A DNA stretch of 64,000 nt from a virus. The stretch lies in the UHGV virus genome UHGV-0214148; one strand, given 5' to 3'. Shown piece after piece: positions 25,376-62,916 of this stretch; position 1 is the stretch's first letter, and each line of letters opens with the position of its first letter. The notes below the pieces were generated by a model that was given only the letters and a program-made list of their open reading frames with translations, did not search any database and was not told the DNA's origin. The position numbers and the translations under genes were made by a program.

Positions 25376-25377
25376 TT

Positions 25378-26699: not shown

Positions 26700-26715
26700 G
26701 ATTATTTTTAATGCG

Positions 26716-26761
26716 AAAAAAAAAAGAAAGGGGAGAACCACCCCATTACAGGGTGGTTCTC
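26716..26761 (-). terminator. intrinsic terminator after paralog 1
   Basis: Stem gagaaccaccc (26733-26743) / gggtggttctc (26751-26761); on minus strand followed by CCTTTCTTTTTTTTTT. Confidence 0.75.
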
Positions 26762-26779
26762 TTACTAAACAATCAGGGA

Positions 26780-28042: not shown

Positions 28043-28118
28043 TTTAAGCTTTTCCTCTAAGGGGAACACGTCGTTCCCCTATTGATTTATTTCAAGAACT
28101 GTACGAGCGTAAGTCTAA

Positions 28119-29390: not shown

Positions 29391-29449
29391 TTCGTTTATT
29401 TCCTTTGGTTATATAACCCAATTACACGCCCCTAGAATGAGGGGCCCCC

Positions 29450-30010: not shown

Positions 30011-30027
30011 TCGCCTCTCCTAACGGT

Positions 30028-30963: not shown

Positions 30964-30973
30964 GCCTTACCCC

Positions 30974-32080: not shown

Positions 32081-32106
32081 TTTCCTAATGAACTCCGGAG
32101 TTAAAG

Positions 32107-39903: not shown

Positions 39904-39941
39904 AAATCAGTATAGCAGCCGCTAGATTTGAGAGTGAAATC

Positions 39942-47535: not shown

Positions 47536-47784
47536 TTAACCGTTATCATGAGGAACGGTTACCCAACTGTGCCATTTCTCGGAGTATAACCGATAGGCCA
47601 CTTTCGGGTTTTGGTCTACATTACCTGCTGGGTTTTCAGACCACAGAACCCAACTGTACAATTCATAAGACGAAGTATTACGAATACTGGAGTTACGTGT
47701 GATATAATAGCATTTACCACGTTGGAAAATCTGCATTCCTGCATAGTGTTCATTCACCATGTAATAGTGAAATGCAACGCCCAT
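47536..47784 (-). CDS. hypothetical small protein (~82 aa; start uncertain)
   Basis: Track ORF 47536..47919 overlaps the upstream helicase gene by 116 nt; first ATG after the helicase stop is at 47782-47784; no clear Shine-Dalgarno. Confidence 0.4.
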   Translation of the reverse strand: MGVAFHYYMVNEHYAGMQIFQRGKCYYITRNSSIRNTSSYELYSWVLWSENPAGNVDQNPKVAYRLYSEKWHSWVTVPHDNG

Positions 47785-47803
47785 CACAGGATCGGTACAG
47801 AGT

Positions 47804-49513
47804 TTATTTACGACGTCTAAAACGTCGGGATACGCCTTTAAAACTTTTTCGAGAAAACTTGCTAAGTTCAGACCGGCATACGGCGCGGTTGGCTCTGTTG
47901 GCTGCGGCGGTAGTAACATCAGCTTTCCTTACAATATACGGTGAGGTGGCTATCTTAAACGACAACACAGAATCACTCAGTGATTTTTGACGCGCATTCA
48001 AATAATTACAATGCTTCGGTATCGAATAAGAATGGAATAACCACACAACGGGATCGAGTTCACCCCAGTCGTTGTGGAGAATCTTACGAGGGCGTCCGGC
48101 CATCTGGCGGTTTAACTGCTGGTCTTCCACAGGGGTAGTGATGTACATGTGTACCAACCCCGGTTTGTCGACCGCAGTACCTGCTTTCCCTGGTGTTGAA
48201 ATAGAGAAATCCGCTTGAATAAAGTCGTCATACGAATCCCCTGCGTTATATTTCGCAACCATCAAAGCGTGGAACTTATCAGATTGTGCGAGCTTCTCTC
48301 GCACGTAATCCGTAAAGAACTCACACATTGCGACGGTTGCAAACAACACCAACACTTTCTGACCAGGTTGATAACCTGCCAGATACGTCCGTTCTATTAC
48401 ATCCCAGACCATATCCGCGTACGACTGATGAAGGTTTTCGCTAATCAGCTTCCCTTCAAACAGTTTGTGGTTATACGGGGTCATCTTCGTTGCCCACCAC
48501 GCAAACCGTTTATTCTCAATTCGGTAATACAACGCTTTCACGTGCACCGCAGGAATAATCGGAATGGTGATACGTGCCTCTTGTGGGAAACGTTCTTTAT
48601 ACCGTTCTGCCAAGAACGCTTTCGATTCACCCGGTTGGAGTGTGGCTGACATCTCAACAGAGGGCGGCGGATTCAACATAATTCCAGCCATGTACACCAA
48701 GTGGAAATGTTCGTGCACTTCATCCATCGATAAAAACCCAACACCTAGCGTGTTATAGAAATCATCGATGTTCGCTGGGTTAGTCGCAGCGGTATTGATA
48801 TATTCTTTCAAAAACCGCTGTAACGTCACTGTAGAGACGATAATAACTTTGATGCCACGTTTATCCAACTCACCACTTTCACCCATTTCTAGCGCTTCGT
48901 AGACCGCTTGTACGCCCTGTATAACCAAGACGTCCTCTTTCGATTCACGAAGTCCAGTAGGATCTTCCGTTAAGTCGAATAACCATTTAGAGATGTACGT
49001 GGGTCGATGAATCAATAACGTTCTTACCCCTTTACGAACCATCACTTTCATGTTCGTCTTCGACTTACCCATCCCTGTACCAATCTCAAAGATGGTTTGT
49101 AAGCGGTTAGGCTGGCACGCCGTTTCTACAACGCCATTCTGATAAAAGAAACGTGACGACTCATCTTCTTCTATCATGTTAAAGCCGTAGTTTTCAAACG
49201 TACAGCGGTAAGGTGTTCCCTGGGTTAAGTGGTGCTCGTAGAGTTTAAAGTCAATAGCAAACTCAGCGGCCGTTCGGTTAATAATGATTCGTAAACGTTC
49301 GGAAAAATTCCGGTGGAATATAAAGGTACGGATAGAAGGTATATGCGCGTAATACGGATCGCCACGTTCGGTGATGATTCTTCCGTATTGTTTACCCATT
49401 TTCGGGGCGTGCATATTCTCTTCTGCCCACTTTAGGATTGCCGACTCTATAGGTCGACAAGGGACTTCGACCCTCACGCCCATGCTCGTAAAGGTCATGT
49501 GGAATTCGTACAT
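47804..49513 (-). CDS. SF2 DExH-box helicase
   Basis: ORF track; Walker A GTGMGKSKT, Walker B DEVHE, motif III SAT, motif VI QMAGRPRK. Confidence 0.8.
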   Translation of the reverse strand: MYEFHMTFTSMGVRVEVPCRPIESAILKWAEENMHAPKMGKQYGRIITERGDPYYAHIPSIRTFIFHRNFSERLRIIINRTAAEFAIDFKLYEHHLTQGTPYRCTFENYGFNMIEEDESSRFFYQNGVVETACQPNRLQTIFEIGTGMGKSKTNMKVMVRKGVRTLLIHRPTYISKWLFDLTEDPTGLRESKEDVLVIQGVQAVYEALEMGESGELDKRGIKVIIVSTVTLQRFLKEYINTAATNPANIDDFYNTLGVGFLSMDEVHEHFHLVYMAGIMLNPPPSVEMSATLQPGESKAFLAERYKERFPQEARITIPIIPAVHVKALYYRIENKRFAWWATKMTPYNHKLFEGKLISENLHQSYADMVWDVIERTYLAGYQPGQKVLVLFATVAMCEFFTDYVREKLAQSDKFHALMVAKYNAGDSYDDFIQADFSISTPGKAGTAVDKPGLVHMYITTPVEDQQLNRQMAGRPRKILHNDWGELDPVVWLFHSYSIPKHCNYLNARQKSLSDSVLSFKIATSPYIVRKADVTTAAANRANRAVCRSELSKFSRKSFKGVSRRFRRRK

Positions 49514-49523
49514 GCTCCCCTCT

Positions 49524-49551
49524 TACAAAAAAAGAGGGGCGCAGGCCCCTC
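49524..49551 (-). terminator. intrinsic terminator between beta-prime-like gene and helicase gene
   Basis: Stem gaggggc (49534-49540) / gcccctc (49545-49551); on minus strand followed by TTTTTTTGT. Confidence 0.6.
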
Positions 49552-49555
49552 TCGT

Positions 49556-51655
49556 TTACTCAATGATAGTCGCGGCCACCGTATTGTCGTATAACGACGC
49601 CGGACGTTTACGCGACGTGTAGAAACGCACGTTGTCCAGGTTTTTCTGTTGGCCTTCGAATAACAACATCGGTACAGCTGAACGCATCGCAATCAACGTA
49701 TTGTGATCCTCGAAACGTTTGCCATCCATCACATCAGCATCTTCACTATCAAACCCAACCGCCGGGAAAGGATTGGTCGGTGATTCAACGCGTGATATCG
49801 CCAGCATAATCGCGATGTGTGTCATCGGAATACCACCGAGCTTACGTTGGATATATTTAAACACATCAAATAACGCGTGCGTACATTGCTTTTCTGTAGC
49901 ACCGCGCATCTGAACCAGTGTCGTTGGTTTTACCTTACCCGACTTCTTGCTCAAGCGCATTGAGTCATCAGAGAACTGTTCGAAAGTATCCGATTTATCA
50001 GATGCAACCGAACGAAGTTTCAATTCTAACCCTGCTACAAACTCCGCCATAGATTCAGACCGATTCGTATAAATTAGTATCGGCCAACTCGGCTTCCAAC
50101 CTTTCAGAGGAATCCGTACCAGTTTCTTCGACGGAAACGTAATGTTATCACGCTGCTTCAGGAAGAAATGCAAGAAGGCTTTCGAGAAGTTACCACAAAC
50201 CCCCATACGGACGTCAATGGGATCTTCAGCCAACACATTCCCAGCTTCATCCAACCGCAAAAAGGTCAGTTCGTTAATCTCCGGCAATGCCGTTTCGTCA
50301 ATCACTTCCAAATCGTCGTGATACGCGATTTGGCTGATTTCAGAATAGACTTCATCAGAAATAACGAGTTGGTATTCATCCCAATTACCGTACTGTGGTT
50401 TCTCCCGTAAACTCAACCCTTTTACGGAGTTGTGTTTATACTCCCCAAGATAATCCCGCATTCTTGGGGTCAGCACCAGATTCAGCAGATAACGTAAGAA
50501 GTCCAAGTGCTTCGTTGAGAGAATCCCCTGCGTACCCTTTACAGATATCGAGGTTGAGGCCAAGTGACCTGGGGATGTTCCCGGCGAAAGGTTATAAATC
50601 AAATCACCCATGCATGTTGCACAAATGCTTTGACGTGCCATCCCCTTACAACACATCGCGGTACGAAACTCAATAGGTTTGCCTAAGACTTTCTCAAACT
50701 CCCCTTTCTCGAATCGTAGCCACGGGCCACCCACACCTTCAAAACGATAACGCATCCCTACCATCGCATCGTACTTCTTACGCTCCAGTTTACTTTCTGT
50801 AAACGTGTGGCGATGAACATGATGCGTACCACAATCGTCGTATTCGAAATACATTAACACGTTGGCTGCTAACTGTAGCTTACGTGACGCATATTCCGCA
50901 TCGGCGATTTTATCGGTATTATACAGGTGAGAACGTGACGTTGCTCCCGCTTCTTTCAGACGACTAATTACAGAATGTAGACCCGTAAAGAAACCTTCCC
51001 ATACCTGGTTAGAATAAACACGAGAATCAATCTCTGATGTTTTCCCGCGTATATACGCCTGAAGAACCTGGTTCATTTTGATGGTCTTATCCAAGACCGA
51101 CATCACCACAGGGTTTAAACGAAGTTGTGGGTCTTTGAAGATATCTTCGATAAGAAGATACGCTTCCTCAACCATATCCCGACCTTCTTCGTCGTACCCA
51201 GTAGGATACATTTGTGCCCACTGATGAATCTGCGTAAAGTTTCGGTGTTGGTAAATTTCCATCATCGTATCGTAGTCAATCGTGACGCAATACGATAACA
51301 AATTTTTCACCGATAAATTAAACGCATCCGCATAAACGTGCTGCTGTAATAAATAACGGGTGTCTGCTAAATCCACACCCGCTTTACGAGCCGCTACAGC
51401 TGCCAATGACATAAACTTCAGATGTGCGTCGTCTGTAGCAGTATCGCCATGTTTATACGCCATTTGCGAACTGATTGGGATCTGCGGATAAAATCGTGTT
51501 AGCCCCCAATAAGGCCAACTGATTTTAATGTGACGTCCTGACATGTTTAAGGTTACCCCGTCATCAAACGTCACTTCATATCTGCCGCGCAATAGCCACA
51601 CCTGATCCGAGTTCAGTTTACACAGATCACGCACGTGAACTGGAGTGCCCTTCAT
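49556..51655 (-). CDS. possible RNA polymerase beta-prime-like subunit (bridge-helix region)
   Basis: ORF track; coupled to beta gene (TAATG). Segment KGTQGILSTKHLDFLRYLLNLV resembles the beta-prime bridge helix (G.RKGLADTALKTA.SGYLTRRLV). No NADFDGD motif present. Confidence 0.4.
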   Translation of the reverse strand: MKGTPVHVRDLCKLNSDQVWLLRGRYEVTFDDGVTLNMSGRHIKISWPYWGLTRFYPQIPISSQMAYKHGDTATDDAHLKFMSLAAVAARKAGVDLADTRYLLQQHVYADAFNLSVKNLLSYCVTIDYDTMMEIYQHRNFTQIHQWAQMYPTGYDEEGRDMVEEAYLLIEDIFKDPQLRLNPVVMSVLDKTIKMNQVLQAYIRGKTSEIDSRVYSNQVWEGFFTGLHSVISRLKEAGATSRSHLYNTDKIADAEYASRKLQLAANVLMYFEYDDCGTHHVHRHTFTESKLERKKYDAMVGMRYRFEGVGGPWLRFEKGEFEKVLGKPIEFRTAMCCKGMARQSICATCMGDLIYNLSPGTSPGHLASTSISVKGTQGILSTKHLDFLRYLLNLVLTPRMRDYLGEYKHNSVKGLSLREKPQYGNWDEYQLVISDEVYSEISQIAYHDDLEVIDETALPEINELTFLRLDEAGNVLAEDPIDVRMGVCGNFSKAFLHFFLKQRDNITFPSKKLVRIPLKGWKPSWPILIYTNRSESMAEFVAGLELKLRSVASDKSDTFEQFSDDSMRLSKKSGKVKPTTLVQMRGATEKQCTHALFDVFKYIQRKLGGIPMTHIAIMLAISRVESPTNPFPAVGFDSEDADVMDGKRFEDHNTLIAMRSAVPMLLFEGQQKNLDNVRFYTSRKRPASLYDNTVAATIIE

Positions 51656-53892
51656 TATTCATCGCCCCTTTTCATTTTCACCAATTCAAACCCTTCACAG
51701 TTGTGGATGTTTTTCATCATCCTGTCAATCTGCGAATCCCCTAACGGGAATTTATTCCGGTCTACTAATGGACCCGGATTAGATGGGGTTTGAGATCGAT
51801 AAAGCCCTACTAAAATCTCACGATGTACCGCAGGGTTATTTGCCCTGTCGTGAACTTCTTCGTAGTTACCTGGACCATAACCCGCTAACAGTCGTTCTTC
51901 CGAAGGACCAGCCCATTTTAGCGTTTTATAGTTTATCGGATACGAGCCACGACCTTGGTTAGACGCGTCTATCGTACCCAGATAATTCAGATACATTGAC
52001 GAGATACTGGAAAACTCACGACCTGTTTTATCCAGACGTAATGTCTCCACACCACCTACGTAAAACTCATTTTTTGTCCATTCCTGTTTACCATCGAAAT
52101 TAGTAATCAGGAGTTTGGATTTACGCGGTTTAAATTCACCCAACCGTTCACTAATATCGACTGGTGTGTCGTCAAGTTCATGTGGTAAGTAAATACGGAT
52201 TGTAAAATCGTAAATCTCTTTGAAAAGTTCGCGTTGTAAATCCTCCGTAGGATGTGTTACCTGTAGTGTGTTGGCCCATTCAGGATTAAAGCGTGACAGA
52301 TAATCCATCAGAATTTCCCAACACTCACTGATACGACCTTCGTCCAGCATCGGTTTAAGACGCATCTTCAACTGCTCAGACGCAGCTGACCAATACATGT
52401 GGAATAATGCTGCATAAGTCGAGCGACGAATTACAGCGTTCATCGAACGTAAAACGTGAACACGTTCACCGAATTCGTTAATCGGCATCTGTTCAACGGG
52501 TAATACACGACCAACAATCCCTTTCGTGCCCGAGCGGTCGGTAATCTTAGACGACACCGTTACCGGGATCGGATAACGAACAGCAATACGAATGGTATAC
52601 GTGTTGATGGGATCGCTGAGTCCACGTTGTACTGGTGAGGTCAACTTAGAAAGAATCTGCTGACTGACATTTTCTTTACCGTATTCACCACGACGAATTG
52701 CTTCATCAATCACCACGCGTATCTCTTCACGAAACTCGTGATAGACCTCGTACGTTTCAGAAGCGAACGCTTTTTCCAACAACACACACGCTTTCGGCGA
52801 CCAGATAATATTTTTGTCACGGGACATCGAGAAATAGAATCGTACGATGGCATTGTAATAGTCTTTCAATGCTAATGCGTATTTATCCAGTTCTCGTTTG
52901 TTCTCTTCGGTACAAGAAATATTGTTAGCACCATTCGCGCAAGACGTTTCATCACGCCACACCTGGATATCGACGATACGTGTACCGCTACGTTCCATCA
53001 GTTCTTTGTCGCCTGCAAGGCGTGCTTTATAGTGAACGGGATCGGCATCCACATATTCGCAGCTATCGAAGAACGGAGAGACGTGTTGGGTTTCCCCAAG
53101 CGACGCATCAATTGCACCGTAAAGCTCATCGAAACGACGCGATGCAATGACCAACCCATCGTCACGAATAGCCTCCCCCACATCCGGGAAATACCGTGGG
53201 ACGCGATTACCGTTCGGATCGATATAACCGTAAGTATCCAGTAAAAACTCGTCTTCACGTAGCGTCTTTTCAACGATTTTCAAACCATAACCGTGGAGTT
53301 TTTGGGCGGCGTACTCAGAGATGGTGTAGGAATCCTCGATGATATCAGGATGCGAAATCGTAACGGTTGGTAACACGACGCTATCGGCGTACTCGCCTTC
53401 CACCATACACGACATCGTTGTAAGGATTTCATCCTTTTCCAACTGATCGGTTTCGCCACGTAAAATACTACGCAGTTTCATCGACTCACGTTTCTCAGAT
53501 GAGAAGATGTTGTCGTGGTTAGTATAGAAATTAATCTCCAGCACATCTATCATGGTTTTACCGCCCTTCATTTCTGCACGGCGGAAGAAGATAGCATGTT
53601 CCAACGCTTTAGAATCCCCACGACGTCCATAACGTGTAAACGTCGCGCGGCGCTGACGACCGTCTTTGGTCATATAGTGGCAGATGCTACCGGGATCTTC
53701 TACAACGTCATTGAACAGAAAATCGTGGTAGTTTATATCAGCCCCTGTAAAATGTGGCGATGGTTCAGGATTGTCGATAGGGACCGCAGACTTCATATGG
53801 TTGCCTACCATCGATGCCCTTGCACCTGATACTTCGGTGATATTAATCTCACGGTCAGCCACACTGCTCATTAGCTCTACTGGCGTTTTCAT
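51655..53892 (-). CDS. multisubunit RNA polymerase beta subunit, C-terminal half
   Basis: ORF track; GEYADSVVLP matches beta NGYNFEDS; RSGTKGIVGRVLPVEQMP...LRSMNAVI matches beta GNKGVISKINPIEDMP...SRMNIGQ. AAAGGAG Shine-Dalgarno; promoter-like motif ~22 nt upstream. Confidence 0.8.
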   Translation of the reverse strand: MKTPVELMSSVADREINITEVSGARASMVGNHMKSAVPIDNPEPSPHFTGADINYHDFLFNDVVEDPGSICHYMTKDGRQRRATFTRYGRRGDSKALEHAIFFRRAEMKGGKTMIDVLEINFYTNHDNIFSSEKRESMKLRSILRGETDQLEKDEILTTMSCMVEGEYADSVVLPTVTISHPDIIEDSYTISEYAAQKLHGYGLKIVEKTLREDEFLLDTYGYIDPNGNRVPRYFPDVGEAIRDDGLVIASRRFDELYGAIDASLGETQHVSPFFDSCEYVDADPVHYKARLAGDKELMERSGTRIVDIQVWRDETSCANGANNISCTEENKRELDKYALALKDYYNAIVRFYFSMSRDKNIIWSPKACVLLEKAFASETYEVYHEFREEIRVVIDEAIRRGEYGKENVSQQILSKLTSPVQRGLSDPINTYTIRIAVRYPIPVTVSSKITDRSGTKGIVGRVLPVEQMPINEFGERVHVLRSMNAVIRRSTYAALFHMYWSAASEQLKMRLKPMLDEGRISECWEILMDYLSRFNPEWANTLQVTHPTEDLQRELFKEIYDFTIRIYLPHELDDTPVDISERLGEFKPRKSKLLITNFDGKQEWTKNEFYVGGVETLRLDKTGREFSSISSMYLNYLGTIDASNQGRGSYPINYKTLKWAGPSEERLLAGYGPGNYEEVHDRANNPAVHREILVGLYRSQTPSNPGPLVDRNKFPLGDSQIDRMMKNIHNCEGFELVKMKRGDE

Positions 53893-53913
53893 TTTAATGC
53901 TCCTTTAGGTTGA

Positions 53914-53937
53914 TTCAGTAGGATAATATCTATCTCA
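53914..53937 (-). promoter_or_regulatory. promoter-like conserved motif, copy 3
   Basis: Minus-sense TGAGATAGATATTATCCTACTGAA, ~22 nt upstream of beta gene ATG 53892; sits in the divergent region with plus gene 53956. Confidence 0.5.
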
Positions 53938-53955
53938 CTTATTTTAGGAACGATT

Positions 53956-54279
53956 ATGTTAGACAATTTTATTACCCTAGAAGAATTCATACCTGCGCCT
54001 TACACCACGACATGGAAAGTGATGCACGATTACACAGACTATCTGCGTAAACACCCGAAAACTAAAATAGAAAATGTTGACCCACGCTACAGTTGGCCTG
54101 AGGTCCACAATTTCTACGCCTACTGTAAACTCAAAGGTTACGCCGATATCATTATCTATCCGATGATGCTATTAAACGGGCTAGAAGACCCCATGAATTT
54201 CACCCCTGAAATCACGCAACTAATCGTACCCGACGTCGGAACGGTTAGTGAGATTATTAGCACCATCGGTAATGATTAA
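53956..54279 (+). CDS. hypothetical protein (107 aa)
   Basis: ORF track; AGGAA Shine-Dalgarno upstream; bidirectional terminator downstream. Confidence 0.65.
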   Translation: MLDNFITLEEFIPAPYTTTWKVMHDYTDYLRKHPKTKIENVDPRYSWPEVHNFYAYCKLKGYADIIIYPMMLLNGLEDPMNFTPEITQLIVPDVGTVSEIISTIGND

Positions 54280-54310
54280 AAAAAGAAGGGACCGAGTCCC
54301 TTCTTTTATA
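54277..54310. terminator. bidirectional intrinsic terminator
   Basis: A-run, stem aagaagggac (54283-54292) / gtcccttctt (54296-54305), 3-nt loop, T-rich tail. Confidence 0.75.
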
Positions 54311-54316
54311 CTTCAC

Positions 54317-55672
54317 TTAACGCGTAAATGCCGAAGTTGCAAATCCACCGAAACTGCTGTTCGTTGCAAATGCTGAACTCGTGCTAAACGCGCTAGTCCC
54401 ACCGACATCCCCGCTGAAAGAATTATTCCCTCCACCAAAGGTACTTGCCAAAGAGCCTCCGGTATTCCCTACACCAAAAATACTCTGACCACCGAAAGGT
54501 GACACCTTGCGCTCACCACCAAACGCATCCACAACAGAAATTCGACTTACCATACCGTTGGCAGGGCTAGTTGTTCCGTGTTGCTCAGCGTAACGTTGCA
54601 TCGCTGGCGTCAAATTCCCATAAGGACTTCGCGCGGCCATGTTACGTTCACGAGCACGGAAGAATTCCATCGGATCTGACTTATCCGCTTTATCCGCATC
54701 CGATGCACGTTTTTGTGGAATCTGCTGCGGAGCCTGCGCACGATCGATACGGAAATCATGCGCCGTGGTATCACGTTCAGGGCTGTCAGAACGTGGGCCG
54801 GTGTTATACGGTAAAGTCTGAATAACGTTATCGTAAATATCCATATTGTCCAGCTGAGAAATCCATTCATCTTCCAACGGACGTAAAGATGTGTGGTCGC
54901 GCAATCCCTTAACGACATTATTGTAATTCACAACGTACTGCGCCCAGCCACGTGCTAAGCAACCGAAATACGGACGCGAATCATTAGACCCCGTTACGCT
55001 CGGATACCAACCGAACACGGTGGTCAGTAAACGGTGGATAATGATTTTGTCTTGTTTACGTTGAAGCTTCGCAGAGAAGTACATTGCAGTACCATCTAAC
55101 GATTCTTCTTCGAACATATTCCGATAATTAGCTACGCGGTTAAACTTCACGCCGTCGATAACTAAATCAGATGCAATAAAAAGCTGGGTGATCTTGTGCT
55201 TTTTATCTTTTTCCAATTGTCCATAGACGAACGCTTTCACCGCTTCCCAGGATTTCACCAAACGTTCGTCGAACGTCGGATCTTTCATCCCTTCGCAAAT
55301 CTGTTCTGTTAAGAACTTCTTGTAGGATGCAGAACGTACTGCTTTACCACTTGCCCCCGTTTCCAGAATCGCGTCGATTAATGCAAAGGAACGAATGAAC
55401 AGGTTCGCATTAATGGATTTCTTCAGGAAACGAATTGTCCCTGATTCACCTGCCAGTACCGATTCACACAGTGGATGAAATGCCTGACATTCACGACCAT
55501 CATCGTCTTCCATACCACGCTTAATCATCGCTGGGGTGGGAAGCGCCAAACGGCGCTTCACTTTGTTATACGTAAACTCTGCCGGTTCACCACCGTCACG
55601 AGTGAGTAAATCGTTTTCAAAATCGAATCCTTGTGATTTAAGAAACGATTTGTAGAATTCAATAATTTTCAT
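54317..55672 (-). CDS. hypothetical protein (451 aa) with Gly/Ser/Phe-rich C-terminal tail
   Basis: ORF track; AAGGA Shine-Dalgarno; C-terminal ~60 aa FGGQSIFGVGNTGGSLASTFGGGNNSFSG...FGGFATSAF. Confidence 0.8.
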   Translation of the reverse strand: MKIIEFYKSFLKSQGFDFENDLLTRDGGEPAEFTYNKVKRRLALPTPAMIKRGMEDDDGRECQAFHPLCESVLAGESGTIRFLKKSINANLFIRSFALIDAILETGASGKAVRSASYKKFLTEQICEGMKDPTFDERLVKSWEAVKAFVYGQLEKDKKHKITQLFIASDLVIDGVKFNRVANYRNMFEEESLDGTAMYFSAKLQRKQDKIIIHRLLTTVFGWYPSVTGSNDSRPYFGCLARGWAQYVVNYNNVVKGLRDHTSLRPLEDEWISQLDNMDIYDNVIQTLPYNTGPRSDSPERDTTAHDFRIDRAQAPQQIPQKRASDADKADKSDPMEFFRARERNMAARSPYGNLTPAMQRYAEQHGTTSPANGMVSRISVVDAFGGERKVSPFGGQSIFGVGNTGGSLASTFGGGNNSFSGDVGGTSAFSTSSAFATNSSFGGFATSAFTR

Positions 55673-55694
55673 TTAAGAGTCCTTGATTAATCTT

Positions 55695-57401
55695 TTACTC
55701 GCCGAATGCACCAAAGCCAGACACTGGCGCAGAGGTTGACATATCGCCACCACCAAAGCTACCGAAGCTACCCAGGCTCGTAGGTGCAGACACAGGGGCA
55801 GTTGGGATATTCGACAGGATATTCGAACGGTTCTGACCACGGTTGAATTCTTGGTACCCTTCTTCCACTTTGTTCATCAGCTGCGCTGTTTCTGCAGCTA
55901 ACTGGTTCGTGTACTGAAGGTCAGTCGTTGTACCACAATGCAGACGTGCTTTCATGAACGACGCATGAGTATAATACTCAGGTAGCTCACCATCGATTTC
56001 GATTTCAATACGTGAAACCACCCCAACGATACACGTTACGGTCATCTTACAACGAATACGGTTGTGTTTAGTCACTTGCAAGAACACGCCTTGTAAGTCA
56101 CTTAAGAAGCGACGTGCTAACACATCCGGTAATCCGTCTTCAGTTAATGCCCCAACGTTGTGTTTTGACACTTGCAGCAGAGGAGGTGTTGCAATATCCG
56201 CCATACGGTTATCGTAGAAGAAAGTCACTTCGCCGATAAGGTTACGAGTGACCACAGGCCCCAGTAACATGGCTAAATCAAATGCCACCAACGAACCCTG
56301 AGTAGAATAGTTGTTACGTCCTACCCAATCATCGGTGCGTTCAATTTCACCAAAACCACGACGGGCTGCGACAGCCAGCGAGTGCGCAATTGCAGCATCC
56401 ACATCTTCGGGATTAATCACCGCGTTACGCAGGTCGCACAGTTTGAATGCTGCACGGTTCGCAACGTTCCAACCGCTAGTCATATCGGACGTGGCGTTGG
56501 ATATGGCGGTTCTAAAAGCCTTCACCAACTCGTAACTGTTGAAATTACGCATCACACCAATCTGGCTAAGTTCAGATTCTACCCCAAGAGAATGATCTCC
56601 TGCGAAGAAGCTGTCTACTGCGCTCAACTCCGTTTCAATCCCCATGGTGTTAATAAAGGAATTGGAGATCGCCGTCACGAAAGATTCTGGTCTGGTTAAT
56701 TGACTAGACATCAACTGTGGCGCACGCTGGCAATTAGCGGAGATAACGGTGTTGTTATCCAGCTCAATCTGCTCACCTGCTTTCACCACTTTACGCACCA
56801 TATCAGCTGCTTTCGCGGTAGAAATAACGTCAATGGTGTGCTCTACATAGCTGTCTGCGGTTAATGTCTTGGACAACACATAGTTGTCTATCAAACGGAA
56901 GGAATCCGGGTTGATACGACGTCCACCAAACGCATCGGTGATATACGTACATTGTAACCCGTATATTTCGTTGATATACAGAACCATGTCATCCGGCAGG
57001 TGATTAAACATGGATCGCTCTGCCTGGGACGTATACCCGGAAACAACATAACGTGTTTCTTGAGTCCGTGTGTCATTTAACGAGTTCGAAACAATAATCG
57101 CCACGAAGTTATACACACCAGTATCGCGAGAATTATACGCAAAATGGATTGGTTGCGATTCGTTATCACTCACGTTAATGAATGGACGTTCAATGCCAGT
57201 TGGGGTATTGTCGAAACCCACAATCTGCCCCAAGGCTTCTTGATAAGCCCGAGAACCTGTTGCTTTATCACCATGTTCTGCAACCACATCCACTAACTCA
57301 TCCAAAGCGTGCTGCGATTCAAAGAACCCAATGCGACGACGAATCTGCTCTGGGATTTCGTACACTGGATACATTTGTAGTTTCAAAAGTTTCATTGCCA
57401 T
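55695..57401 (-). CDS. hypothetical protein (568 aa) with Gly/Ser/Phe-rich C-terminal tail
   Basis: ORF track; AAAGGAG Shine-Dalgarno; C-terminus SLGSFGSFGGGDMSTSAPVSGFGAFGE. Confidence 0.8.
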   Translation of the reverse strand: MAMKLLKLQMYPVYEIPEQIRRRIGFFESQHALDELVDVVAEHGDKATGSRAYQEALGQIVGFDNTPTGIERPFINVSDNESQPIHFAYNSRDTGVYNFVAIIVSNSLNDTRTQETRYVVSGYTSQAERSMFNHLPDDMVLYINEIYGLQCTYITDAFGGRRINPDSFRLIDNYVLSKTLTADSYVEHTIDVISTAKAADMVRKVVKAGEQIELDNNTVISANCQRAPQLMSSQLTRPESFVTAISNSFINTMGIETELSAVDSFFAGDHSLGVESELSQIGVMRNFNSYELVKAFRTAISNATSDMTSGWNVANRAAFKLCDLRNAVINPEDVDAAIAHSLAVAARRGFGEIERTDDWVGRNNYSTQGSLVAFDLAMLLGPVVTRNLIGEVTFFYDNRMADIATPPLLQVSKHNVGALTEDGLPDVLARRFLSDLQGVFLQVTKHNRIRCKMTVTCIVGVVSRIEIEIDGELPEYYTHASFMKARLHCGTTTDLQYTNQLAAETAQLMNKVEEGYQEFNRGQNRSNILSNIPTAPVSAPTSLGSFGSFGGGDMSTSAPVSGFGAFGE

Positions 57402-57431
57402 TGTAAATGCTCCTTTAGGTCAAGCCGAAAA

Positions 57432-59060
57432 TTATTGATTAAACCATGCTACTTCTTCGCATTTCTTTCTGTTTTGAATTAACAGAAATTCTGCTAACAT
57501 GTTCTGAAGTCGCGGATGAGGTGAATAGTCCAACATCACTGTCCCACACCGTAACATTCTGGCTGCTTCCGGTGTTGCCCTGAGATTGAAGTTGAACGGC
57601 GCAATATGTTCACGAACCAACAAGCTGAGAGAATCCTTCAATGTTGATTGTTCGTAAGTATTACGATGTTTACGGTATGCTTGTGGATAATATCTATCCG
57701 TTTTTATTTTAATCTCATTATCGATAGGCTCGATGGGATACCCGCCATTTAGTGGTGCCCGGATCATTTCACAACTTAACAACTGTGCAATCTCAGGCAT
57801 TCCGTAATAGATGTAAACGGCTTGGGATATACCCATCGCGTTCTTAAACGCTTCTGAGTCGATTTCCTTGTATGTACGACGATCTGCAAATCGGTGCATC
57901 ACTGCCGCCACCAACCATTCGTAGAGTTCGTAGAACGGATATTGATGATTAATGTTGATGGAATCTATCAACACTTTCACATCAGCGGGAGCAATATCGA
58001 GATTCAAAGCACGTACCGCACGACGATAGTCATTAAAGAATTCTTGGGTACGAACGAATTCCTTCATTGGTGCTTTAGTCCGAGCTTGAACCAGGTCAAT
58101 CGACGAAGTTTTCCCCTTCTCGCCATTGAACATGATTTTCTCAGGATTCGCTTTTAACATCACGTTTTGGCCGGAAATTTTTCCCGCGAAGCCCGTTTCG
58201 ATTTCTTGTCGAATATTGAAATACATCCCCGCCACGATGTTGTTTTCAACCATCGTACCTGGCGGTAGTTCGGCACCGATTAACTTCATTGCAATTAAAC
58301 GGATAACGGCGAACGCTATGATGTATTCCTCTACCATATCCGTACCGTAGCCACAGATAGATGCCAGGACGGTAAGGTTTGCAGTATTGGGTCCTTTACT
58401 CCCTCCGTCCTGAACTTTCGAAATCACCGACACTAAAAACTCACGCAACTTTGTAATGGCTGGCAGTGTAGCAATCTCGGTATCAGACAACAACTCCATG
58501 CAGTAGGTCAGGTTATAAACACTTTTGCGCTTCGACTCAACAGAAGCGCGTGTTGCAGGAAAAGCGTCCAAAATCAAGAATACGGGAATAAACGGTTTTG
58601 TCATCAAAGACAAAATCACCAATTCGTAATAATCTTGTACGATATACGTCATCTCTTTTGGATAATTCGACGACATCTCTTCGTACGTTTCGTGGACGTT
58701 TTGAGGAATCCACACCGAACCGTGTGGATAAAGCTGGCGGAATCTATCTGCGTGATGAAATTTAGCAATTCTCGCGACGAGCGTGGGGACGTGTTCACGA
58801 ATAACTTCTGGGGGTTCATTAGCTAACAACTCTAATTCTTCGTAAACTGAAAACAGTTCGCTTTTCTCTTCAGGCGTTAAAGTTGACCAATAACGCTCGA
58901 TTTCCATGAACATGATTTTATCGTGCGTTACGATCTGTCCGAAACTATCGCGTACGTCTGGCACATTCACGTCTTTACGTCCATTTCGGAAACCATTAAA
59001 CGCGACCTCTTTTTCGCCGTACTTTATCACTAAACGGTCACGATTCTTTTCAATGCGCAT
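57432..59060 (-). CDS. hypothetical protein (~542 aa)
   Basis: Track ORF starts upstream at a non-ATG codon (59144); ATG at 59058-59060 (MRIEKNRDRL) has GGAG Shine-Dalgarno 9 nt upstream and lies ~30 nt downstream of promoter-like motif copy 4. Confidence 0.75.
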   Translation of the reverse strand: MRIEKNRDRLVIKYGEKEVAFNGFRNGRKDVNVPDVRDSFGQIVTHDKIMFMEIERYWSTLTPEEKSELFSVYEELELLANEPPEVIREHVPTLVARIAKFHHADRFRQLYPHGSVWIPQNVHETYEEMSSNYPKEMTYIVQDYYELVILSLMTKPFIPVFLILDAFPATRASVESKRKSVYNLTYCMELLSDTEIATLPAITKLREFLVSVISKVQDGGSKGPNTANLTVLASICGYGTDMVEEYIIAFAVIRLIAMKLIGAELPPGTMVENNIVAGMYFNIRQEIETGFAGKISGQNVMLKANPEKIMFNGEKGKTSSIDLVQARTKAPMKEFVRTQEFFNDYRRAVRALNLDIAPADVKVLIDSININHQYPFYELYEWLVAAVMHRFADRRTYKEIDSEAFKNAMGISQAVYIYYGMPEIAQLLSCEMIRAPLNGGYPIEPIDNEIKIKTDRYYPQAYRKHRNTYEQSTLKDSLSLLVREHIAPFNFNLRATPEAARMLRCGTVMLDYSPHPRLQNMLAEFLLIQNRKKCEEVAWFNQ

Positions 59061-59088
59061 TTTAAAATCTCCAGGAATAACATAGTCG

Positions 59089-59112
59089 TCCACTAAGATA
59101 AAATCTATCTCA
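59089..59112 (-). promoter_or_regulatory. promoter-like conserved motif, copy 4
   Basis: Minus-sense TGAGATAGATTTTATCTTAGTGGA, ~29 nt upstream of ATG 59060. Confidence 0.45.
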
Positions 59113-59193
59113 GATAACTTCGACTGTATTCTACACACATACACGATAAAGAGCCCCAGGATATCCTGGGGCTATGTTATAGTTTTACATTAT

Positions 59194-59838
59194 TTAGATA
59201 ATATCGTCAAAATCGTTAGTTGGTGTTGGGGCTTTTGCACCGGATTGGTTGTTATAACCGCCGCCATTGCCGCCGTTATTGTAACCACCACGACCGTAAC
59301 TACCACCACCCGCATTATTAAACTCACGCGGTTTGTAGTTGTCACGGAAATCTTCCAGGAATACATCCGCATTTTTCAGGAACGCGCGTAGCTGACGCTC
59401 TGCCAGTTCCAGATCGGAGACCAGTTGTCCATTACGGAAAACACGATAACCTTTCGGATAAGTGAAATAGAATTTCTTCTGACGCGCACCAACCCCTGGG
59501 ATCTCGCCGCTCAGTGCAAAGAACGGTGTCAGGTTTTCATCACGACCTACGTGTAAGCTAACCGGTGCCTTCTTACCTTTTGCATCTTCCCATTTGAAAA
59601 CAACTTTTTCGGGTTTCTGCATCACCGTACGTAGGGTTTCAAAGATATCAACGCAAACGGTATAGCCTGCGGTGAAATAAAGACCTTCGCCTTTACCAAA
59701 GGAGTAGTGGAATTTCATCAGTTCCACATCACCATTGAACTCGTTCAGTTCAATGCCCAGTTTACGCGTACGGCCCTGTTGATCCGGCTCAGTCTGCGGG
59801 TAAAGCCATTTCTCTTTAAGGAAGTTTTTATTGACCAT
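59194..59838 (-). CDS. putative single-stranded DNA-binding protein (SSB-like)
   Basis: ORF track; C-terminal Gly/Asn/Tyr-rich linker ending in acidic tip NDFDDII, like the SSB C-terminal tail (DFDDDIPF); AGGA Shine-Dalgarno. Confidence 0.5.
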   Translation of the reverse strand: MVNKNFLKEKWLYPQTEPDQQGRTRKLGIELNEFNGDVELMKFHYSFGKGEGLYFTAGYTVCVDIFETLRTVMQKPEKVVFKWEDAKGKKAPVSLHVGRDENLTPFFALSGEIPGVGARQKKFYFTYPKGYRVFRNGQLVSDLELAERQLRAFLKNADVFLEDFRDNYKPREFNNAGGGSYGRGGYNNGGNGGGYNNQSGAKAPTPTNDFDDII

Positions 59839-59896
59839 TTACTTATCCTATTTTTACATTTTCGGAGTGCTCAAACTAACAAAACGATCTGTAAAA

Positions 59897-60733
59897 TTAG
59901 CGAGACAATCTACGAAGGAACTCAATGACAAAGGGTTCGTTAACCAACTTCAAACAACTGTAAATACGATCCATAGTCGTATCTTGTCGCCAGTGGTATT
60001 TCTCGGCAGTCTTCAAAACCACCTTACGCACCTTTCTGTCAAGTGGGGAGAACATATACCCATCGCCAAATAGCGTTAGAAACGCTTTGTTAAACGGGAT
60101 CTGTTCGGGTTTACCGTAAAGCTTCGTGTACCATTCTAACCGACCTTTAATCTTACCCGTGTGTGATTCTAGCAGATTCAACAGCGGGAAATCTTTGTAG
60201 GCCAGTAGATCGGCAGGGTAATGGGTTAAAATCAATGTGTCATGCTGCCCTTTCGGAAACACATCAAAGCTTTTGAATTGTTCAGGGTATTTTTCACCGT
60301 ATAACTTTAACGTATCGTGTTCTAGCGCATTAAAGTGATGCTGGTTAGGTGTCATCTTTTCCTGCCCTCCTGCAATCGTACGGAACGCTGCTTCGGGGAA
60401 GATTCTGTTCGCACTTTTATACGTACAGATATAGGGGACACATAGCACCGAAGGCGCTACCGCTTTCGCGGTAGCGTTAATAGAAGCAATATCTTCTTCA
60501 ATCGATGCCAGCAACACTTCAGGTGTTAATCGTTCACGATTCGTTTCAAACGCGTAAAACGCGTTACGGAACAACGTCCGTAGATTCAGGTAAATATCCT
60601 GATACTTGTGGATAGGGACAGGACCCTTCCAATCGGCATATTCTCCTTCATGGAGAAGCCCTTCAAAAGCCAACGATGTAGCAATTGACATTTGATAAAA
60701 CCCAAACGTGCGATCAACACTGATTGGGGTCAT
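59897..60733 (-). CDS. hypothetical protein (278 aa)
   Basis: ORF track; ATGA overlap with upstream gene. Confidence 0.75.
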   Translation of the reverse strand: MTPISVDRTFGFYQMSIATSLAFEGLLHEGEYADWKGPVPIHKYQDIYLNLRTLFRNAFYAFETNRERLTPEVLLASIEEDIASINATAKAVAPSVLCVPYICTYKSANRIFPEAAFRTIAGGQEKMTPNQHHFNALEHDTLKLYGEKYPEQFKSFDVFPKGQHDTLILTHYPADLLAYKDFPLLNLLESHTGKIKGRLEWYTKLYGKPEQIPFNKAFLTLFGDGYMFSPLDRKVRKVVLKTAEKYHWRQDTTMDRIYSCLKLVNEPFVIEFLRRLSR

Positions 60734-61878
60734 TTGATGCTCCTGATAATGTCAGTGACAATTTGTGCATCGTATTTAAACGGCACTAATGCTTCTAACA
60801 AAATCGCTTCCACATTCTCTTCAGAGATGGTTTCCTCGACCTCTGCGTCGATAGCAAAACCGGCTGCGAGAATTTGCTCCTCTTCAGGCGTACGTATACG
60901 CGTACCTGAAATATGGAAAGAATATTGTGATTTCCAACGAGTGATGGCTTCCGCCAATGGAGAATCAGGGTAATATTCAATTTCCAATCGTCCAATCACT
61001 GAGGACGGATGAGTATCAATGTACTCAAGCGCAGAGAGACATTTCGCGTACTGCGATTCATAGTCCTCCTCCGCAGCAATCTTAATCTGCGGGCAAGCGC
61101 GTTCATTAACCAAGAAATAATCTCTGGCTAAATCAGGAGTGAAATCGACAATAGCAAAGCCTTTGTCCTCTTCTTCACCCATTGCCAGGCGATCAGGGCT
61201 GCCTGGTACACGAATCTTACCCAATTGTTTCCTACGATGATCGTGATGGATGATAATCAAATGCTTGACTAACGGTTCCCAAAAATCCGTATGGAAAAAG
61301 CGGGTAGACTCAACGGGAACTTGGAACTGAAAGCAGCCATGCATAAAGCAGAAATCCATCTGCTGTATACCACGCGTGGCTAATAATTCAGCCATTTCCT
61401 GTTCTGTTGCGGCAGCATCAATGGATTCGGAACCCAGGGCTTTATACTCGTCCTGGACCCAACCGACTGTCGCTTCTAACGCCTCGTCGTAAAACACGCC
61501 AATCTTATCCAGATACAAACAATCTGCACCCACCGCCTGATTTAACTCTTCGACGATTTTCGATTGTTTGTGATCGTGGGAGGGTGTTCCTTCCAAGACA
61601 CGAATAGCGGTATTCGTCTGTTTGGCCCAGAGCAATAACCAAGTTAAAAACCCTATGGCTTCCTGAGAATCTTCTTGCCGCAAATGCCGGGAATCATCAA
61701 ATAAATCACCAGCTATATAAATAGCGTCAATCGTATTATCGAACCGTTCTAAGGTTTCCTTGAGCACGTTAACAATATGCCACGTCGGTACACGACGGTG
61801 CAATAAGTGTACATCGCCCGTTGAGAAAATGCGCTTAACGCCAACTGGTTTCGGTGGCGGATTAGTAATCCTCTTCAT
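60730..61878 (-). CDS. calcineurin-like metallophosphoesterase, Mre11/SbcD-like nuclease
   Basis: ORF track; phosphoesterase motifs GDVHL (I), AGDLFDD (II), GTPSHDH (III), MHG (IV), IIHHDH (V). Confidence 0.65.
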   Translation of the reverse strand: MKRITNPPPKPVGVKRIFSTGDVHLLHRRVPTWHIVNVLKETLERFDNTIDAIYIAGDLFDDSRHLRQEDSQEAIGFLTWLLLWAKQTNTAIRVLEGTPSHDHKQSKIVEELNQAVGADCLYLDKIGVFYDEALEATVGWVQDEYKALGSESIDAAATEQEMAELLATRGIQQMDFCFMHGCFQFQVPVESTRFFHTDFWEPLVKHLIIIHHDHRRKQLGKIRVPGSPDRLAMGEEEDKGFAIVDFTPDLARDYFLVNERACPQIKIAAEEDYESQYAKCLSALEYIDTHPSSVIGRLEIEYYPDSPLAEAITRWKSQYSFHISGTRIRTPEEEQILAAGFAIDAEVEETISEENVEAILLEALVPFKYDAQIVTDIIRSIK

Positions 61879-62530
61879 CGATGATTCTTCTTCCCTTAGC
61901 AGGGGAGGACTGTTCAGGCTGTGCCGCCGTTACAGGTTTCTTTTGTCCCTGGATACGATTGCACAATTCTTCAAGTCCTTCAGGATAAGGTAATTGTCCT
62001 GACACGTTATAACGACGGAAGATCCAGTTTAACAGATCGATAGTCTGTTTCGCACGAAGTGCATTTTCTTCGTACGACAACTTTTCGATGCCGTCCAACG
62101 TATAGTCGATCATCTGATACATCTGCCGTTCACCGACCTCGGAAATGATATCGGCTTGTTGGCGAATCATCTCTGTTTCTTCAGTGAGCGACGGCTGACC
62201 ATCGACGTGTTGGAGCGACCGACCAGTATTAAGCAGGGGCGGGATCGTAAAGAGTAGTTTTGAATTATCCGAATCCGAAACAATCTGTAACGGAACGAAA
62301 GCACTACCTACATAATCCGTCCAGGTATCTTCGTTAAACGTACCGTCCAACATCCCCGACAACAGCGGTAAACCTTGTCGACGGAACATCGATTCAGTAA
62401 ACACGCTGCACACACCCTGGCCCTGTTTAAGCATCTCTTCCATTTCAAGAAGTTTCTCAAACTCAAACTTAGCACGGCCAGAAAGTTCTTCAATGGCCAC
62501 CCCATTAAATTTTCCCGGTTCTTGATCCAT
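61862..62530 (-). CDS. hypothetical protein (222 aa)
   Basis: ORF track. Confidence 0.7.
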   Translation of the reverse strand: MDQEPGKFNGVAIEELSGRAKFEFEKLLEMEEMLKQGQGVCSVFTESMFRRQGLPLLSGMLDGTFNEDTWTDYVGSAFVPLQIVSDSDNSKLLFTIPPLLNTGRSLQHVDGQPSLTEETEMIRQQADIISEVGERQMYQMIDYTLDGIEKLSYEENALRAKQTIDLLNWIFRRYNVSGQLPYPEGLEELCNRIQGQKKPVTAAQPEQSSPAKGRRIIDEEDY

Positions 62531-62532
62531 CC

Positions 62533-62916
62533 TTACTCATCCTCAATGACTGATGATTCAGTTTCAACGTAACGTTCCACATCATACCACACCCCACCCG
62601 ACATAACACGAGCTTGGATGATGATACGGTAGCGTACATCGGTATCCGGCAAATATTCCCAGGTTGTCTCTACTTCAACCCCCTCAGGGAAAATATGTTC
62701 GTAAAGCGTGGTTAAGTCTGTTTTCACCCGATTGGCTAAGCCGTCGGGATCTTGAGCAAACATTTGCTTTGCTTTCGCAAGTGACCGGACGTTGCCTTGA
62801 TAAATTTGCGATTGGCTATACCCCGCTTCCGTGTAATGATTCATCATCTCACGAATACGTTCACGGGGAGTTTTTGCCCAGCCGCGTGTAGAAACCGTGC
62901 CTACTGCAATCGCCAT
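62533..62916 (-). CDS. hypothetical protein (127 aa)
   Basis: ORF track; AGGAG Shine-Dalgarno upstream. Confidence 0.65.
   Translation of the reverse strand: MAIAVGTVSTRGWAKTPRERIREMMNHYTEAGYSQSQIYQGNVRSLAKAKQMFAQDPDGLANRVKTDLTTLYEHIFPEGVEVETTWEYLPDTDVRYRIIIQARVMSGGVWYDVERYVETESSVIEDE

Follow-up and report, generated by a model that had tools for sequence, protein, structure and literature searches.

The minus strand of viral genome UHGV-0214148 carries, in the 64,000-nucleotide stretch analyzed here (the window), a run of open reading frames (ORFs) that extends from position 62916 down to position 47804 and is nearly gap-free in the ORF map. In a first-pass annotation, this run was described as a replication and recombination gene set, in which a superfamily 2 (SF2) DExH helicase, a protein resembling single-stranded-DNA-binding protein (SSB) and an Mre11/SbcD-like phosphoesterase are encoded in a single orientation, with RNA polymerase (RNAP) genes among them. 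No gene for a Rad50/SbcC-like ATPase was seen beside the Mre11-like gene, which was regarded as unusual. The question raised by the locus is whether these genes form a recombination module with an orphan nuclease or belong to a conserved block of another kind.

The three ORFs are indeed present on the minus strand, at 47804-49513 (569 amino acids; aa), 59194-59838 (214 aa) and 60730-61878 (382 aa). Their common orientation and their interleaving with RNAP genes also hold, with the ORFs at 49556-51655, 51655-53892 and 57432-59144 matching chains of PDB entry 7ogp. In this study, the locus was assigned on the basis of homology, synteny, predicted folds, motif conservation and a remote SbcC gene. 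The region is very probably the core block 2 copy of a nucleus-forming jumbo phage (Chimalliviridae), from an uncultivated SPN3US/Asesino-like member of this group.

Identity of the locus

Genes gp62-gp75 of phiKZ are collinear, gene for gene, with the minus-strand interval 47804-62916; in phiKZ numbering, the window reads gp62, gp64, gp65, gp66, gp67, gp68, gp69, gp70, gp71-73, gp74 and gp75. The gene order also agrees with positions 20362-35109 of SPN3US and with gp58-gp68 of PhiPA3, and each of the eight window ORFs that were compared falls into the same PHROG family as its positional PhiPA3 counterpart. Furthermore, all 18 related IMG/VR loci have the order gp64-like, SbcD, gp66-like (a protein with a predicted flap-endonuclease-like fold), ChmC and gp68-like. 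In the published core-genome table, phiKZ gp065, 066, 067, 068, 069, 071-073, 074 and 075 are among cg8-cg17 of block 2 and gp062 is cg7, under labels that include 'putative nuclease', 'hypothetical', 'putative nvRNAP sigma factor' and 'putative RAD2/SF2 helicase' (PMC10299810 supplement).

The closest isolates found by tblastn are the Erwinia phages phiEaH2, Stratton and Asesino and the Salmonella phage SPN3US, with 65-74% aa identity, and more distant copies of the block proteins occur in phiKZ, PhiPA3, 201phi2-1 and many other jumbo phages. Two IMG/VR contigs of 220-225 kb, IMGVR_UViG_3300029126_000001 and 3300045988_113438, are 96.1% and 98.4% identical in nucleotide sequence to the window over 7.6 kb. 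A megablast search with the region matched only two phage records, at ~72% identity and over part of the region.

PHROG profiles give a family for every ORF of the region. A single-sequence Pfam search with ten of the ORFs returned only one marginal RNAP domain; the proteins are thus too divergent for searches of this type. The ORFs are not chance reading frames; they are long and have strong family matches. Nothing was found that contradicts the identification of the block, and it is held with high confidence.

The SbcD nuclease and its putative remote partner

To judge by its sequence, the 382-aa protein is a genuine SbcD/Mre11. It is 28% identical to PhiPA3 gp59 (E 2e-35), and a profile of 56 homologs matches the Mre11 proteins of T. 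maritima (1.6e-11) and P. furiosus (9e-8) as well as the SbcD of E. coli (2e-5). The alignment to T. maritima Mre11 spans residues 8-302, or up to ~358 in the full-length chain, and thus takes in the nuclease and capping domains. A profile was needed for these matches, as single-sequence searches with this protein returned nothing from Pfam and nothing meaningful from the PDB.

The phosphoesterase motifs read GDVHL, GDLFD, GTPSHD, MHG and HHDH, and residues D22, H24, G57-D58, H101, H180, H212 and H214 are invariant in the 56 homologs. The first-pass claim of an Mre11-like protein with all five motifs is therefore borne out for the family, whereas motif III departs from the canonical GNHD. It consists of G97-T98-P99-S100-H101-D102, invariant in all 56 homologs; compared with LPG--NHD in T. 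maritima Mre11, the His and Asp are kept, a Ser stands in for the metal-ligand Asn and Thr-Pro forms a two-residue insertion. Motif V is HHDH in the window phage and GHxH in most relatives.

No SbcC gene was found in the 64-kb window, either by tblastn with SPN3US SbcC (best E 0.31) or among the ten largest other ORFs, which belong to other families. However, a full-length SbcC of 834 aa is encoded in both near-identical contigs (phrog_77 at 7e-90), ~130 kb from SbcD in one and ~90 kb in the other. It carries Walker A (GGNGCGKT) and Walker B (LLLDEP) motifs, an H-loop (VSH) and, at residue 411 of 834, a CPQC hook. The SbcC/SbcD pair is practically universal in jumbo phages (Iyer et al. 2021), and its split in SPN3US, phiKZ and relatives has been known since 2016: SPN3US gp186 (SbcC) is essential and encoded far from gp27 (SbcD) (Thomas et al. 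2016, PMC5105663). The absence of SbcC beside SbcD, as noted in the first-pass annotation, is real and is already explained by the remote gene. It is not an anomaly of the locus, because SbcC is encoded far off in near-identical genomes and the split was described in 2016; the puzzle of the 'orphan Mre11' was settled by that work (PMC5105663). In a transposon-mutagenesis study, the SbcC-like phiKZ orf165 received zero insertions (transposon-mutagenesis preprint), and the main text of two transposon-mutagenesis preprints does not mention phiKZ gp65, gp66 or gp75.

The 214-residue protein

The 214-aa protein is assigned as an ortholog of ChmC/Imp6, with a predicted fold other than the oligonucleotide/oligosaccharide-binding (OB) fold and with RNA binding expected by orthology. 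It shares phrog_3284 with PhiPA3 gp61 (5e-51 and 6e-81), and hhalign joins the clade of the window protein to the ChmC family of phiKZ, PhiPA3, 201phi2-1 and Goslar with a probability of 98.8% (E 6e-17, 162 columns). In addition, its slot is conserved: the order is SbcD, gp66-like, ChmC, gp68-like and PicA, and in PhiPA3 ChmC (gp61) is encoded two genes downstream of the SbcD homolog (gp59). A single-sequence PDB search with the window protein gave nothing meaningful, and PhiPA3 gp61 used alone as a query for related loci returned itself only.

An AlphaFold2 model was built from an 11-sequence alignment, with a mean pLDDT score (predicted local distance difference test) of 78.6 and core blocks mostly at 81-95. 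Its topology is beta-beta-beta-alpha followed by beta-beta-beta-beta-alpha, with a disordered tail from residue 174. The predicted fold is of the Whirly/PUR type and not an OB fold; together with the N/G-rich disordered C-terminal region, it agrees with what has been published for ChmC (PMC11077065).

The published data come from the orthologs in PhiPA3, Goslar and phiKZ. ChmC is a homotetramer that binds single-stranded RNA (ssRNA) with a dissociation constant of 58 nM and single-stranded DNA (ssDNA) with one of 184 nM; phage mRNAs are bound by it in vivo, its condensates require the C-terminal region, and its knockdown leads to nuclear mRNA retention, smaller nuclei, less DNA and plaquing at ~4% of the control (PMC11077065). 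Under the name Imp6, the same protein binds the import factor Imp1/PicA directly, and how RNA binding, mRNA export and protein import are connected is called open in the preprint on import factors (bioRxiv 10.1101/2024.03.27.586873). The SPN3US homolog of phiKZ ORF67, gp29 (24.5 kDa), is essential (PMC5105663).

Distant ChmC orthologs were sampled from GenBank phage records. Several GenBank proteins of the Salmonella phages SPFM1/9/10/12/14/20 were left out of the alignments, as they matched the ChmC, SbcD and gp66-like queries in short pieces that were out of order. The deposited sequences or gene calls of these SPFM entries appear to be scrambled.

The helicase

The first-pass assignment of an SF2 DExH helicase stands. 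The 569-aa protein matches a PHROG helicase family (Table 1) and is 26% identical to PhiPA3 gp68 (E 4e-36). Its motifs comprise a Q-motif-like YQ (124-125), motif I GTGMGKS (145-151), motif II DEVH (264-267), motif III SAT (289-291) and motif VI QMAGRPR (470-476). Across 51 homologs, no variation occurs at Q125, G147, G149, K150, D264, E265, H267, S289, T291, Q470, R474 and R476. The family comprises 1209 representatives at E<=1e-3. A single-sequence PDB search gave nothing meaningful; with the family profile, the best solved relatives are XPB/Rad25/Ssl2 proteins (2e-10 to 4e-9), the matches including archaeal XPBII (2e-10) and human and yeast XPB/Ssl2 (2e-9 to 2e-8). The match covers mainly profile positions 93-178, in the first RecA lobe, and extends to position 287 in one chain. 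The profile searches that the first-pass annotation had proposed thus led from SbcD to Mre11, from the helicase to XPB and from the 214-aa protein to ChmC.

The family corresponds to cg17, listed as 'putative RAD2/SF2 helicase'; its RAY member, gp250, is a core protein that localizes inside the phage nucleus (PMC10299810). The window protein would be an SF2 DEVH translocase of XPB/Rad25 type that resides in the nucleus and may act in recombination or in transcription. It is quite possible, although the odds are somewhat against it, that it assists the adjacent non-virion RNA polymerase (nvRNAP) in transcription as an XPB- or Snf2-like translocase on double-stranded DNA, in promoter opening, RNAP recycling or R-loop removal, and has no part in recombination or replication. 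The gene always lies directly downstream of two nvRNAP genes (cg15, cg16, cg17), but adjacency is weak evidence in genomes as shuffled as these. The best solved relatives are the TFIIH proteins XPB/Rad25/Ssl2, and motif II is DEVH as in these proteins; however, the XPB match lies mostly within the region of motifs Q, I and Ia. The intranuclear location of the RAY ortholog (PMC10299810) and the presence in the window of a separate DnaB-like replicative helicase (14405-15967) are consistent with a transcriptional role. Against this, Iyer et al. propose that Snf2/Swi2-type helicases of group 1 replace UvsW in recombination.

Three features of the helicase sequence are recorded here as side observations. 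Residues 541-569 (47804-47890, minus strand) form a very basic tail, ...SKFSRKSFKGVSRRFRRRK, which may be a nucleic-acid-binding or targeting extension. Most relatives, of ~510 aa, are shorter, and the matches stop at approximately residue 510-530. Many other homologs have 730-940 aa owing to an intein (Hint plus LAGLIDADG homing endonuclease) at approximately residue 150, in the motif I P-loop, whereas the window copy is intein-free.

The C-terminal tail of ChmC

The C-terminus of the 214-aa protein reads ...GGGSYGRGGYNNGGNGGGYNNQSGAKAPTPTNDFDDII, with a Gly/Asn-rich stretch before the tip. Of 28 ChmC orthologs, 24 have a tip that combines an aromatic residue, an acidic pair and a hydrophobic C-terminus, compared with one of 378 unrelated controls and one of the 78 window ORFs. 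The first-pass description of an SSB-like protein with an acidic DFDDII tip is thus upheld as regards the tip, and an OB-fold SSB gives way to the Whirly-fold ChmC/Imp6 ortholog. In the SPN3US-like clade, the tips follow [FY]D[DE]-hydrophobic-hydrophobic (DFDDII, YDDFV, YDEFL, FDDYV and YDEMF); elsewhere they read FDEDMPSF (phiKZ), FDDEIPNF (PhiPA3), GDDDIPM (Xanthomonas phage LucasX), SDDIPW (Ralstonia phage FLC4-3B) and FNFDDDVPL (Pseudomonas phage DT01). In E. coli, the SSB encoded in the MG1655 genome terminates in MDFDDDIPF after a G/Q/P-rich linker.

Nine of 11 ChmC tails aligned to the SSB tail with scores above those of composition-preserving shuffles (z about 2-4). The signal is modest and speaks for a shared order (linker, then tip), not for homology. 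SSB is not mentioned in the ChmC paper, where the C-terminus is treated as an 'electronegative cluster' (PMC11077065), and no paper with both terms was found in the literature searched. The likeness of the ChmC tail to that of SSB is an unremarked resemblance, and is offered as a hypothesis rather than a finding.

The resemblance raises the idea, which is unlikely, that ChmC/Imp6 is the functional counterpart of bacterial SSB in the phage nucleus, besides or instead of being an mRNA chaperone. It would then be a tetrameric single-strand binder with a Gly/Asn-rich linker and a DDD-I-P-F-like tip that recruit partners, of which PicA/Imp1 at the shell, replication or recombination enzymes (the adjacent SbcD and the FEN-like protein) and host SSB-interacting proteins are candidates, and it might also coat ssDNA in the phage nucleus. 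Plant Whirly proteins are organellar ssDNA binders, which counts in favor of the idea. The architectures are parallel in the tetrameric state (published for PhiPA3), in the variable linker rich in G/N/Q and in the conserved tip; the frequency of the tips listed above, their likeness to DFDDDIPF of E. coli and the comparison with shuffles point in the same direction, but the resemblance may be convergent and driven by low complexity, and the tips are degenerate in some orthologs (...ASFDW in 201phi2-1 and ...AFDGLAF in Goslar). The affinity for ssDNA is only about threefold lower than that for ssRNA and the knockdown nuclei contain less DNA; however, the enhanced crosslinking and immunoprecipitation (eCLIP), mRNA fluorescence in situ hybridization (mRNA-FISH) and knockdown data favor mRNA export, and green fluorescent protein (GFP) fusions are located at the shell and not throughout the nucleoid (PMC11077065). 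According to the ChmC authors, acidic tails can also be auto-inhibitory 'electronegative clusters'. Iyer et al. name the classic OB-fold SSB among the hallmarks of group 2 jumbo phages and not of the phiKZ-like group 1. In the literature searched, no paper was found that names an SSB for nucleus-forming phages, no whole chimallivirus genome having been scanned for an OB-fold SSB.

That the locus is a dedicated replication and recombination module, in which a helicase and an OB-fold SSB accompany an orphan Mre11 without a Rad50 partner, is very improbable and largely refuted. The helicase and Mre11/SbcD family calls are correct, the 214-aa protein does have an SSB-like Gly-rich linker and acidic tip and the window does lack an SbcC gene, but this protein is a ChmC/Imp6 ortholog with a predicted Whirly and not an OB fold, genomes with 96-98% identity to the window encode a full-length, zinc-hook-bearing SbcC at another place, and the intervening genes are trafficking and transcription factors. 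Block 2 mixes nucleases, an mRNA-export/protein-import pair, nvRNAP subunits and a helicase.

Other genes of the block

The features assigned in the region are listed in Table 1.

Table 1. Features of the core block 2 region in the window, with the basis of each assignment
Feature	Positions	Strand	Basis
SbcD/Mre11-type nuclease, 382 aa (phiKZ gp65, SPN3US gp27, core gene cg8)	60730-61878	-	phrog_100 at 1e-59
SbcD motifs V and III	61237-61248 and 61573-61590	-	Motif read-out
ChmC/Imp6 ortholog (phiKZ gp67), 214 aa	59194-59838	-	PHROG, hhalign, synteny, fold
ChmC Whirly-fold nucleic-acid-binding core, aa 1-173	59320-59838	-	Predicted fold
ChmC disordered tail, aa 174-214	59197-59319	-	pLDDT <50
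ChmC acidic tip NDFDDII	59197-59217	-	C-terminal end
SF2 DEVH-box helicase/translocase, 569 aa; ortholog of phiKZ gp75, PhiPA3 gp68 and RAY gp250 (cg17)	47804-49513	-	phrog_16 'DNA helicase' at 5e-50
Homolog of phiKZ gp66/PhiPA3 gp60 (core gene cg9), divergent flap-endonuclease/5'-3' exonuclease-like fold	59897-60733	-	Homology and predicted fold
Fifth, phage-specific nvRNAP subunit (phiKZ gp68 homolog)	57432-59144	-	phrog_3209 at 3e-154; PDB 7ogp_B PHIKZ068, E 3e-10, residues 70-481
PicA/Imp1 ortholog (phiKZ gp69, PhiPA3 gp63)	55695-57401	-	phrog_3141 at 1.5e-127; family of PhiPA3 gp63; collinear position
Homolog of phiKZ gp70/PhiPA3 gp64	54317-55672	-	phrog_3520 at 2e-123; family of PhiPA3 gp64; collinear position
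nvRNAP beta-like subunit, homolog of PHIKZ071-073	51655-53892	-	Pfam RNA_pol_Rpb2_6 at 2e-5; phrog_3295 at 4e-251; PDB 7ogp_C PHIKZ071, E 3e-29
nvRNAP subunit, homolog of PHIKZ074	49556-51655	-	phrog_3015 at 9e-223; PDB 7ogp_D PHIKZ074, E 3e-31, residues 8-684
Homolog of phiKZ gp64/PhiPA3 gp58	61862-62530	-	phrog_5171 at 8e-71
127-aa ORF in the slot of SPN3US gp25/phiKZ gp62 (cg7)	62533-62916	-	Position and size only

The start codon of the gp66-like gene, which lies between SbcD and ChmC, overlaps the stop codon of SbcD (ATGA). Its counterpart cg9 is annotated as hypothetical and marked as specific to nucleus-forming phages (PMC10299810 supplement). An AlphaFold2 model made with 51 homologs has a pLDDT of 95.8, and the top seven Foldseek matches were T4 RNase H, T5 D15 and plastid exonuclease, with probabilities of up to 0.99 and a template modeling (TM) score of ~0.4. 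Membership of the flap endonuclease (FEN) family is suggested by the predicted fold only. The conserved acidic residues in the 51 homologs are only E24, D175, E189 and D224, and conserved Arg, Asn and His residues are present where FEN carboxylates would be expected. An hhalign comparison with the 5' nuclease of E. coli PolI was insignificant (probability 0.6%); it places D175 near D140 and G223-D224 on G184-D185. The protein may be inactive or have a different active site. No paper tying gp66 to flap endonucleases was found in the literature searched.

In the first-pass annotation, the neighbors at 59897-60733 and 61862-62530 were considered as possible sites of a degenerate ABC-type ATPase. 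This candidate was rejected: neither ORF contains a Walker A motif ([GA]xxxxGK[ST]) or is similar to SPN3US SbcC, the former has the predicted FEN-like fold and the latter has no PDB or Pfam match with a profile of 11 homologs.

The beta-like RNAP subunit also matches bacterial beta subunits in the PDB search. PicA/Imp1 is the protein-import factor of the phage nucleus (bioRxiv 10.1101/2024.03.21.585822; 10.1101/2024.03.27.586873), and PhiPA3 gp64 is reported to be associated with the nuclear shell (PMC11077065). At the upstream end of the block, the SPN3US locus has a 387-nucleotide (nt) gene at the place matching the 127-aa ORF of the window, and SPN3US gp25 is a low-copy tail protein of 14.6 kDa homologous to phiKZ ORF62 (PMC5105663).

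Some further observations were made in passing. At the C-terminus of the gp64-like proteins of the window and of the 18 related loci, low-complexity sequence leads into an acidic tip whose last residue is aromatic or aliphatic (IIDEEDY, GDGDDDY, GDGEDY, DGEDL and DDGDAL; EGEYED in PhiPA3 gp58); this is a second acidic C-terminal tip in the block. A 107-aa ORF on the plus strand (53956-54279), between the gp70-like gene and the RNAP genes, and a 127-aa ORF on the minus strand (47536-47919), which covers the final 116 nt of the helicase gene, each have an SPN3US counterpart annotated at the matching place and may be real genes. In positions 1-47000, the window holds other chimallivirus core genes, such as those for the major head protein (11560-13854), the DnaB-like helicase and a virion structural protein (3434-6151), as well as two ORFs of DNA polymerase families (8581-10356 and 39828-41723) and several large proteins without an assigned function.

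Discussion

If the locus is core block 2, its genes would serve several processes in the phage nucleus. ChmC/Imp6, as a Whirly-fold tetramer, would bind phage mRNA and help it to exit from the phage nucleus, and would also bind PicA/Imp1, the factor that licenses protein import, so that the two would form a trafficking pair of the nuclear shell. The gp68-like, beta-like and PHIKZ074-like nvRNAP subunits would transcribe middle and late genes inside the nucleus. SbcD and the divergent FEN-fold protein to which it is translationally coupled may form a pair for DNA-end processing, in which SbcD would work with an SbcC/Rad50 ATPase, encoded ~90-130 kb away in the near-identical genomes.

Several points weigh against this account. 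All functions are transferred from phiKZ, PhiPA3 and Goslar orthologs at 25-35% identity. Motif III of SbcD lacks the canonical Asn. The pairwise BLAST match between the ChmC-like protein and PhiPA3 gp61 is weak by itself (E 0.075), and because it is marginal the assignment was based on profiles, synteny and fold. Nuclease activity of the gp66-like protein is doubtful, because there are only four conserved acidic residues and the match to a real 5' nuclease is insignificant. Finally, SbcC was seen in near-identical genomes and not in the source genome itself, of which the window is the part analyzed.

The gene set is a textbook conserved block, and what is new here is an uncultivated member. 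For annotation, the analysis provides an ortholog-based assignment for every ORF in 47804-62530, in a lineage whose records mostly read 'hypothetical protein'. Two details had no match in the literature searched, namely the FEN-like fold of the ORF coupled to SbcD and the resemblance of the ChmC tail to the C-terminus of SSB. The predicted fold of cg9 (phiKZ gp66) suggests that a second nucleic-acid-processing protein is coupled to SbcD, and the SSB-like tail provides a concrete hypothesis for how ChmC engages PicA/Imp1 or other partners.

Comparison with known systems

The window SbcD shares the calcineurin-like phosphoesterase motifs and the capping-domain region with the SbcCD/Mre11-Rad50 systems (E. 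coli SbcCD, T. maritima and T4 gp46/gp47). Unlike the E. coli, T. maritima and T4 systems, it has GTPSHD in place of GNHD as motif III and is coupled to a protein with a predicted FEN fold. The SbcC of the near-identical contigs has the split ABC motifs and CxxC hook of Rad50/SbcC and, at 834 aa, is larger than T4 gp46; in contrast to systems of the E. coli SbcCD type, its gene lies outside the SbcD operon. Members of the FEN/5'-3' exonuclease family (T5 D15, T4 RNase H and M. smegmatis FenA) have seven or eight carboxylates, compared with the four conserved acidic residues of the gp66-like protein, which has no significant sequence or profile similarity to this family.

The helicase shares with XPB/Rad25/Ssl2 the Q motif and motifs I (GxGKS/T), II (DEVH), III (SAT) and VI (QxxGRxxR). 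It differs in having its own 120-aa N-terminal domain and the very basic C-terminal tail, and the likeness lies mainly in the N-terminal RecA lobe.

The 214-aa protein resembles ChmC/Imp6 (PhiPA3 gp61, phiKZ gp67 and Goslar gp176) in its predicted Whirly-type tandem beta-alpha repeats, in its N/G-rich, disordered and acidic C-terminus and in the position of its gene, two genes after SbcD and directly before the gp68-like gene. However, it is shorter (214 versus 246-262 aa) and has no N-terminal extension, and its tip, DFDDII, contains no Pro and ends in Ile, in contrast to tips such as FDDEIPNF or FDEDMPSF. Compared with bacterial SSB (E. coli ssb), the tail of the window protein is ...APTPTNDFDDII and that of E. 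coli is ...PSNEPPMDFDDDIPF; in both, a low-complexity, Gly-rich linker of variable length leads to a conserved acidic tip that has a hydrophobic C-terminus. The oligomeric state would also be shared if the tetramer found for PhiPA3 transfers to the window protein. The SSB domain, however, is an OB fold, whereas that of ChmC is of the Whirly type, and the cores have no detectable sequence similarity; the published preference of ChmC for ssRNA over ssDNA is likewise unlike that of bacterial SSB.

As a whole, the window agrees in its genes, their order and their orientation with core block 2 of the Chimalliviridae (phiKZ gp62-gp75, PhiPA3 gp56-gp68 and the gp25-gp36 region of SPN3US; Prichard et al. 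2023), and this likeness extends to the small ORF that lies on the opposite strand upstream of the RNAP genes and to the ORF that overlaps the 3' end of the helicase gene. It differs by sequence divergence, with 65-79% aa identity to phiEaH2, Asesino and SPN3US and 25-35% to phiKZ and PhiPA3, and its nvRNAP beta-like gene is uninterrupted, whereas that of PhiPA3 is split by an intron.

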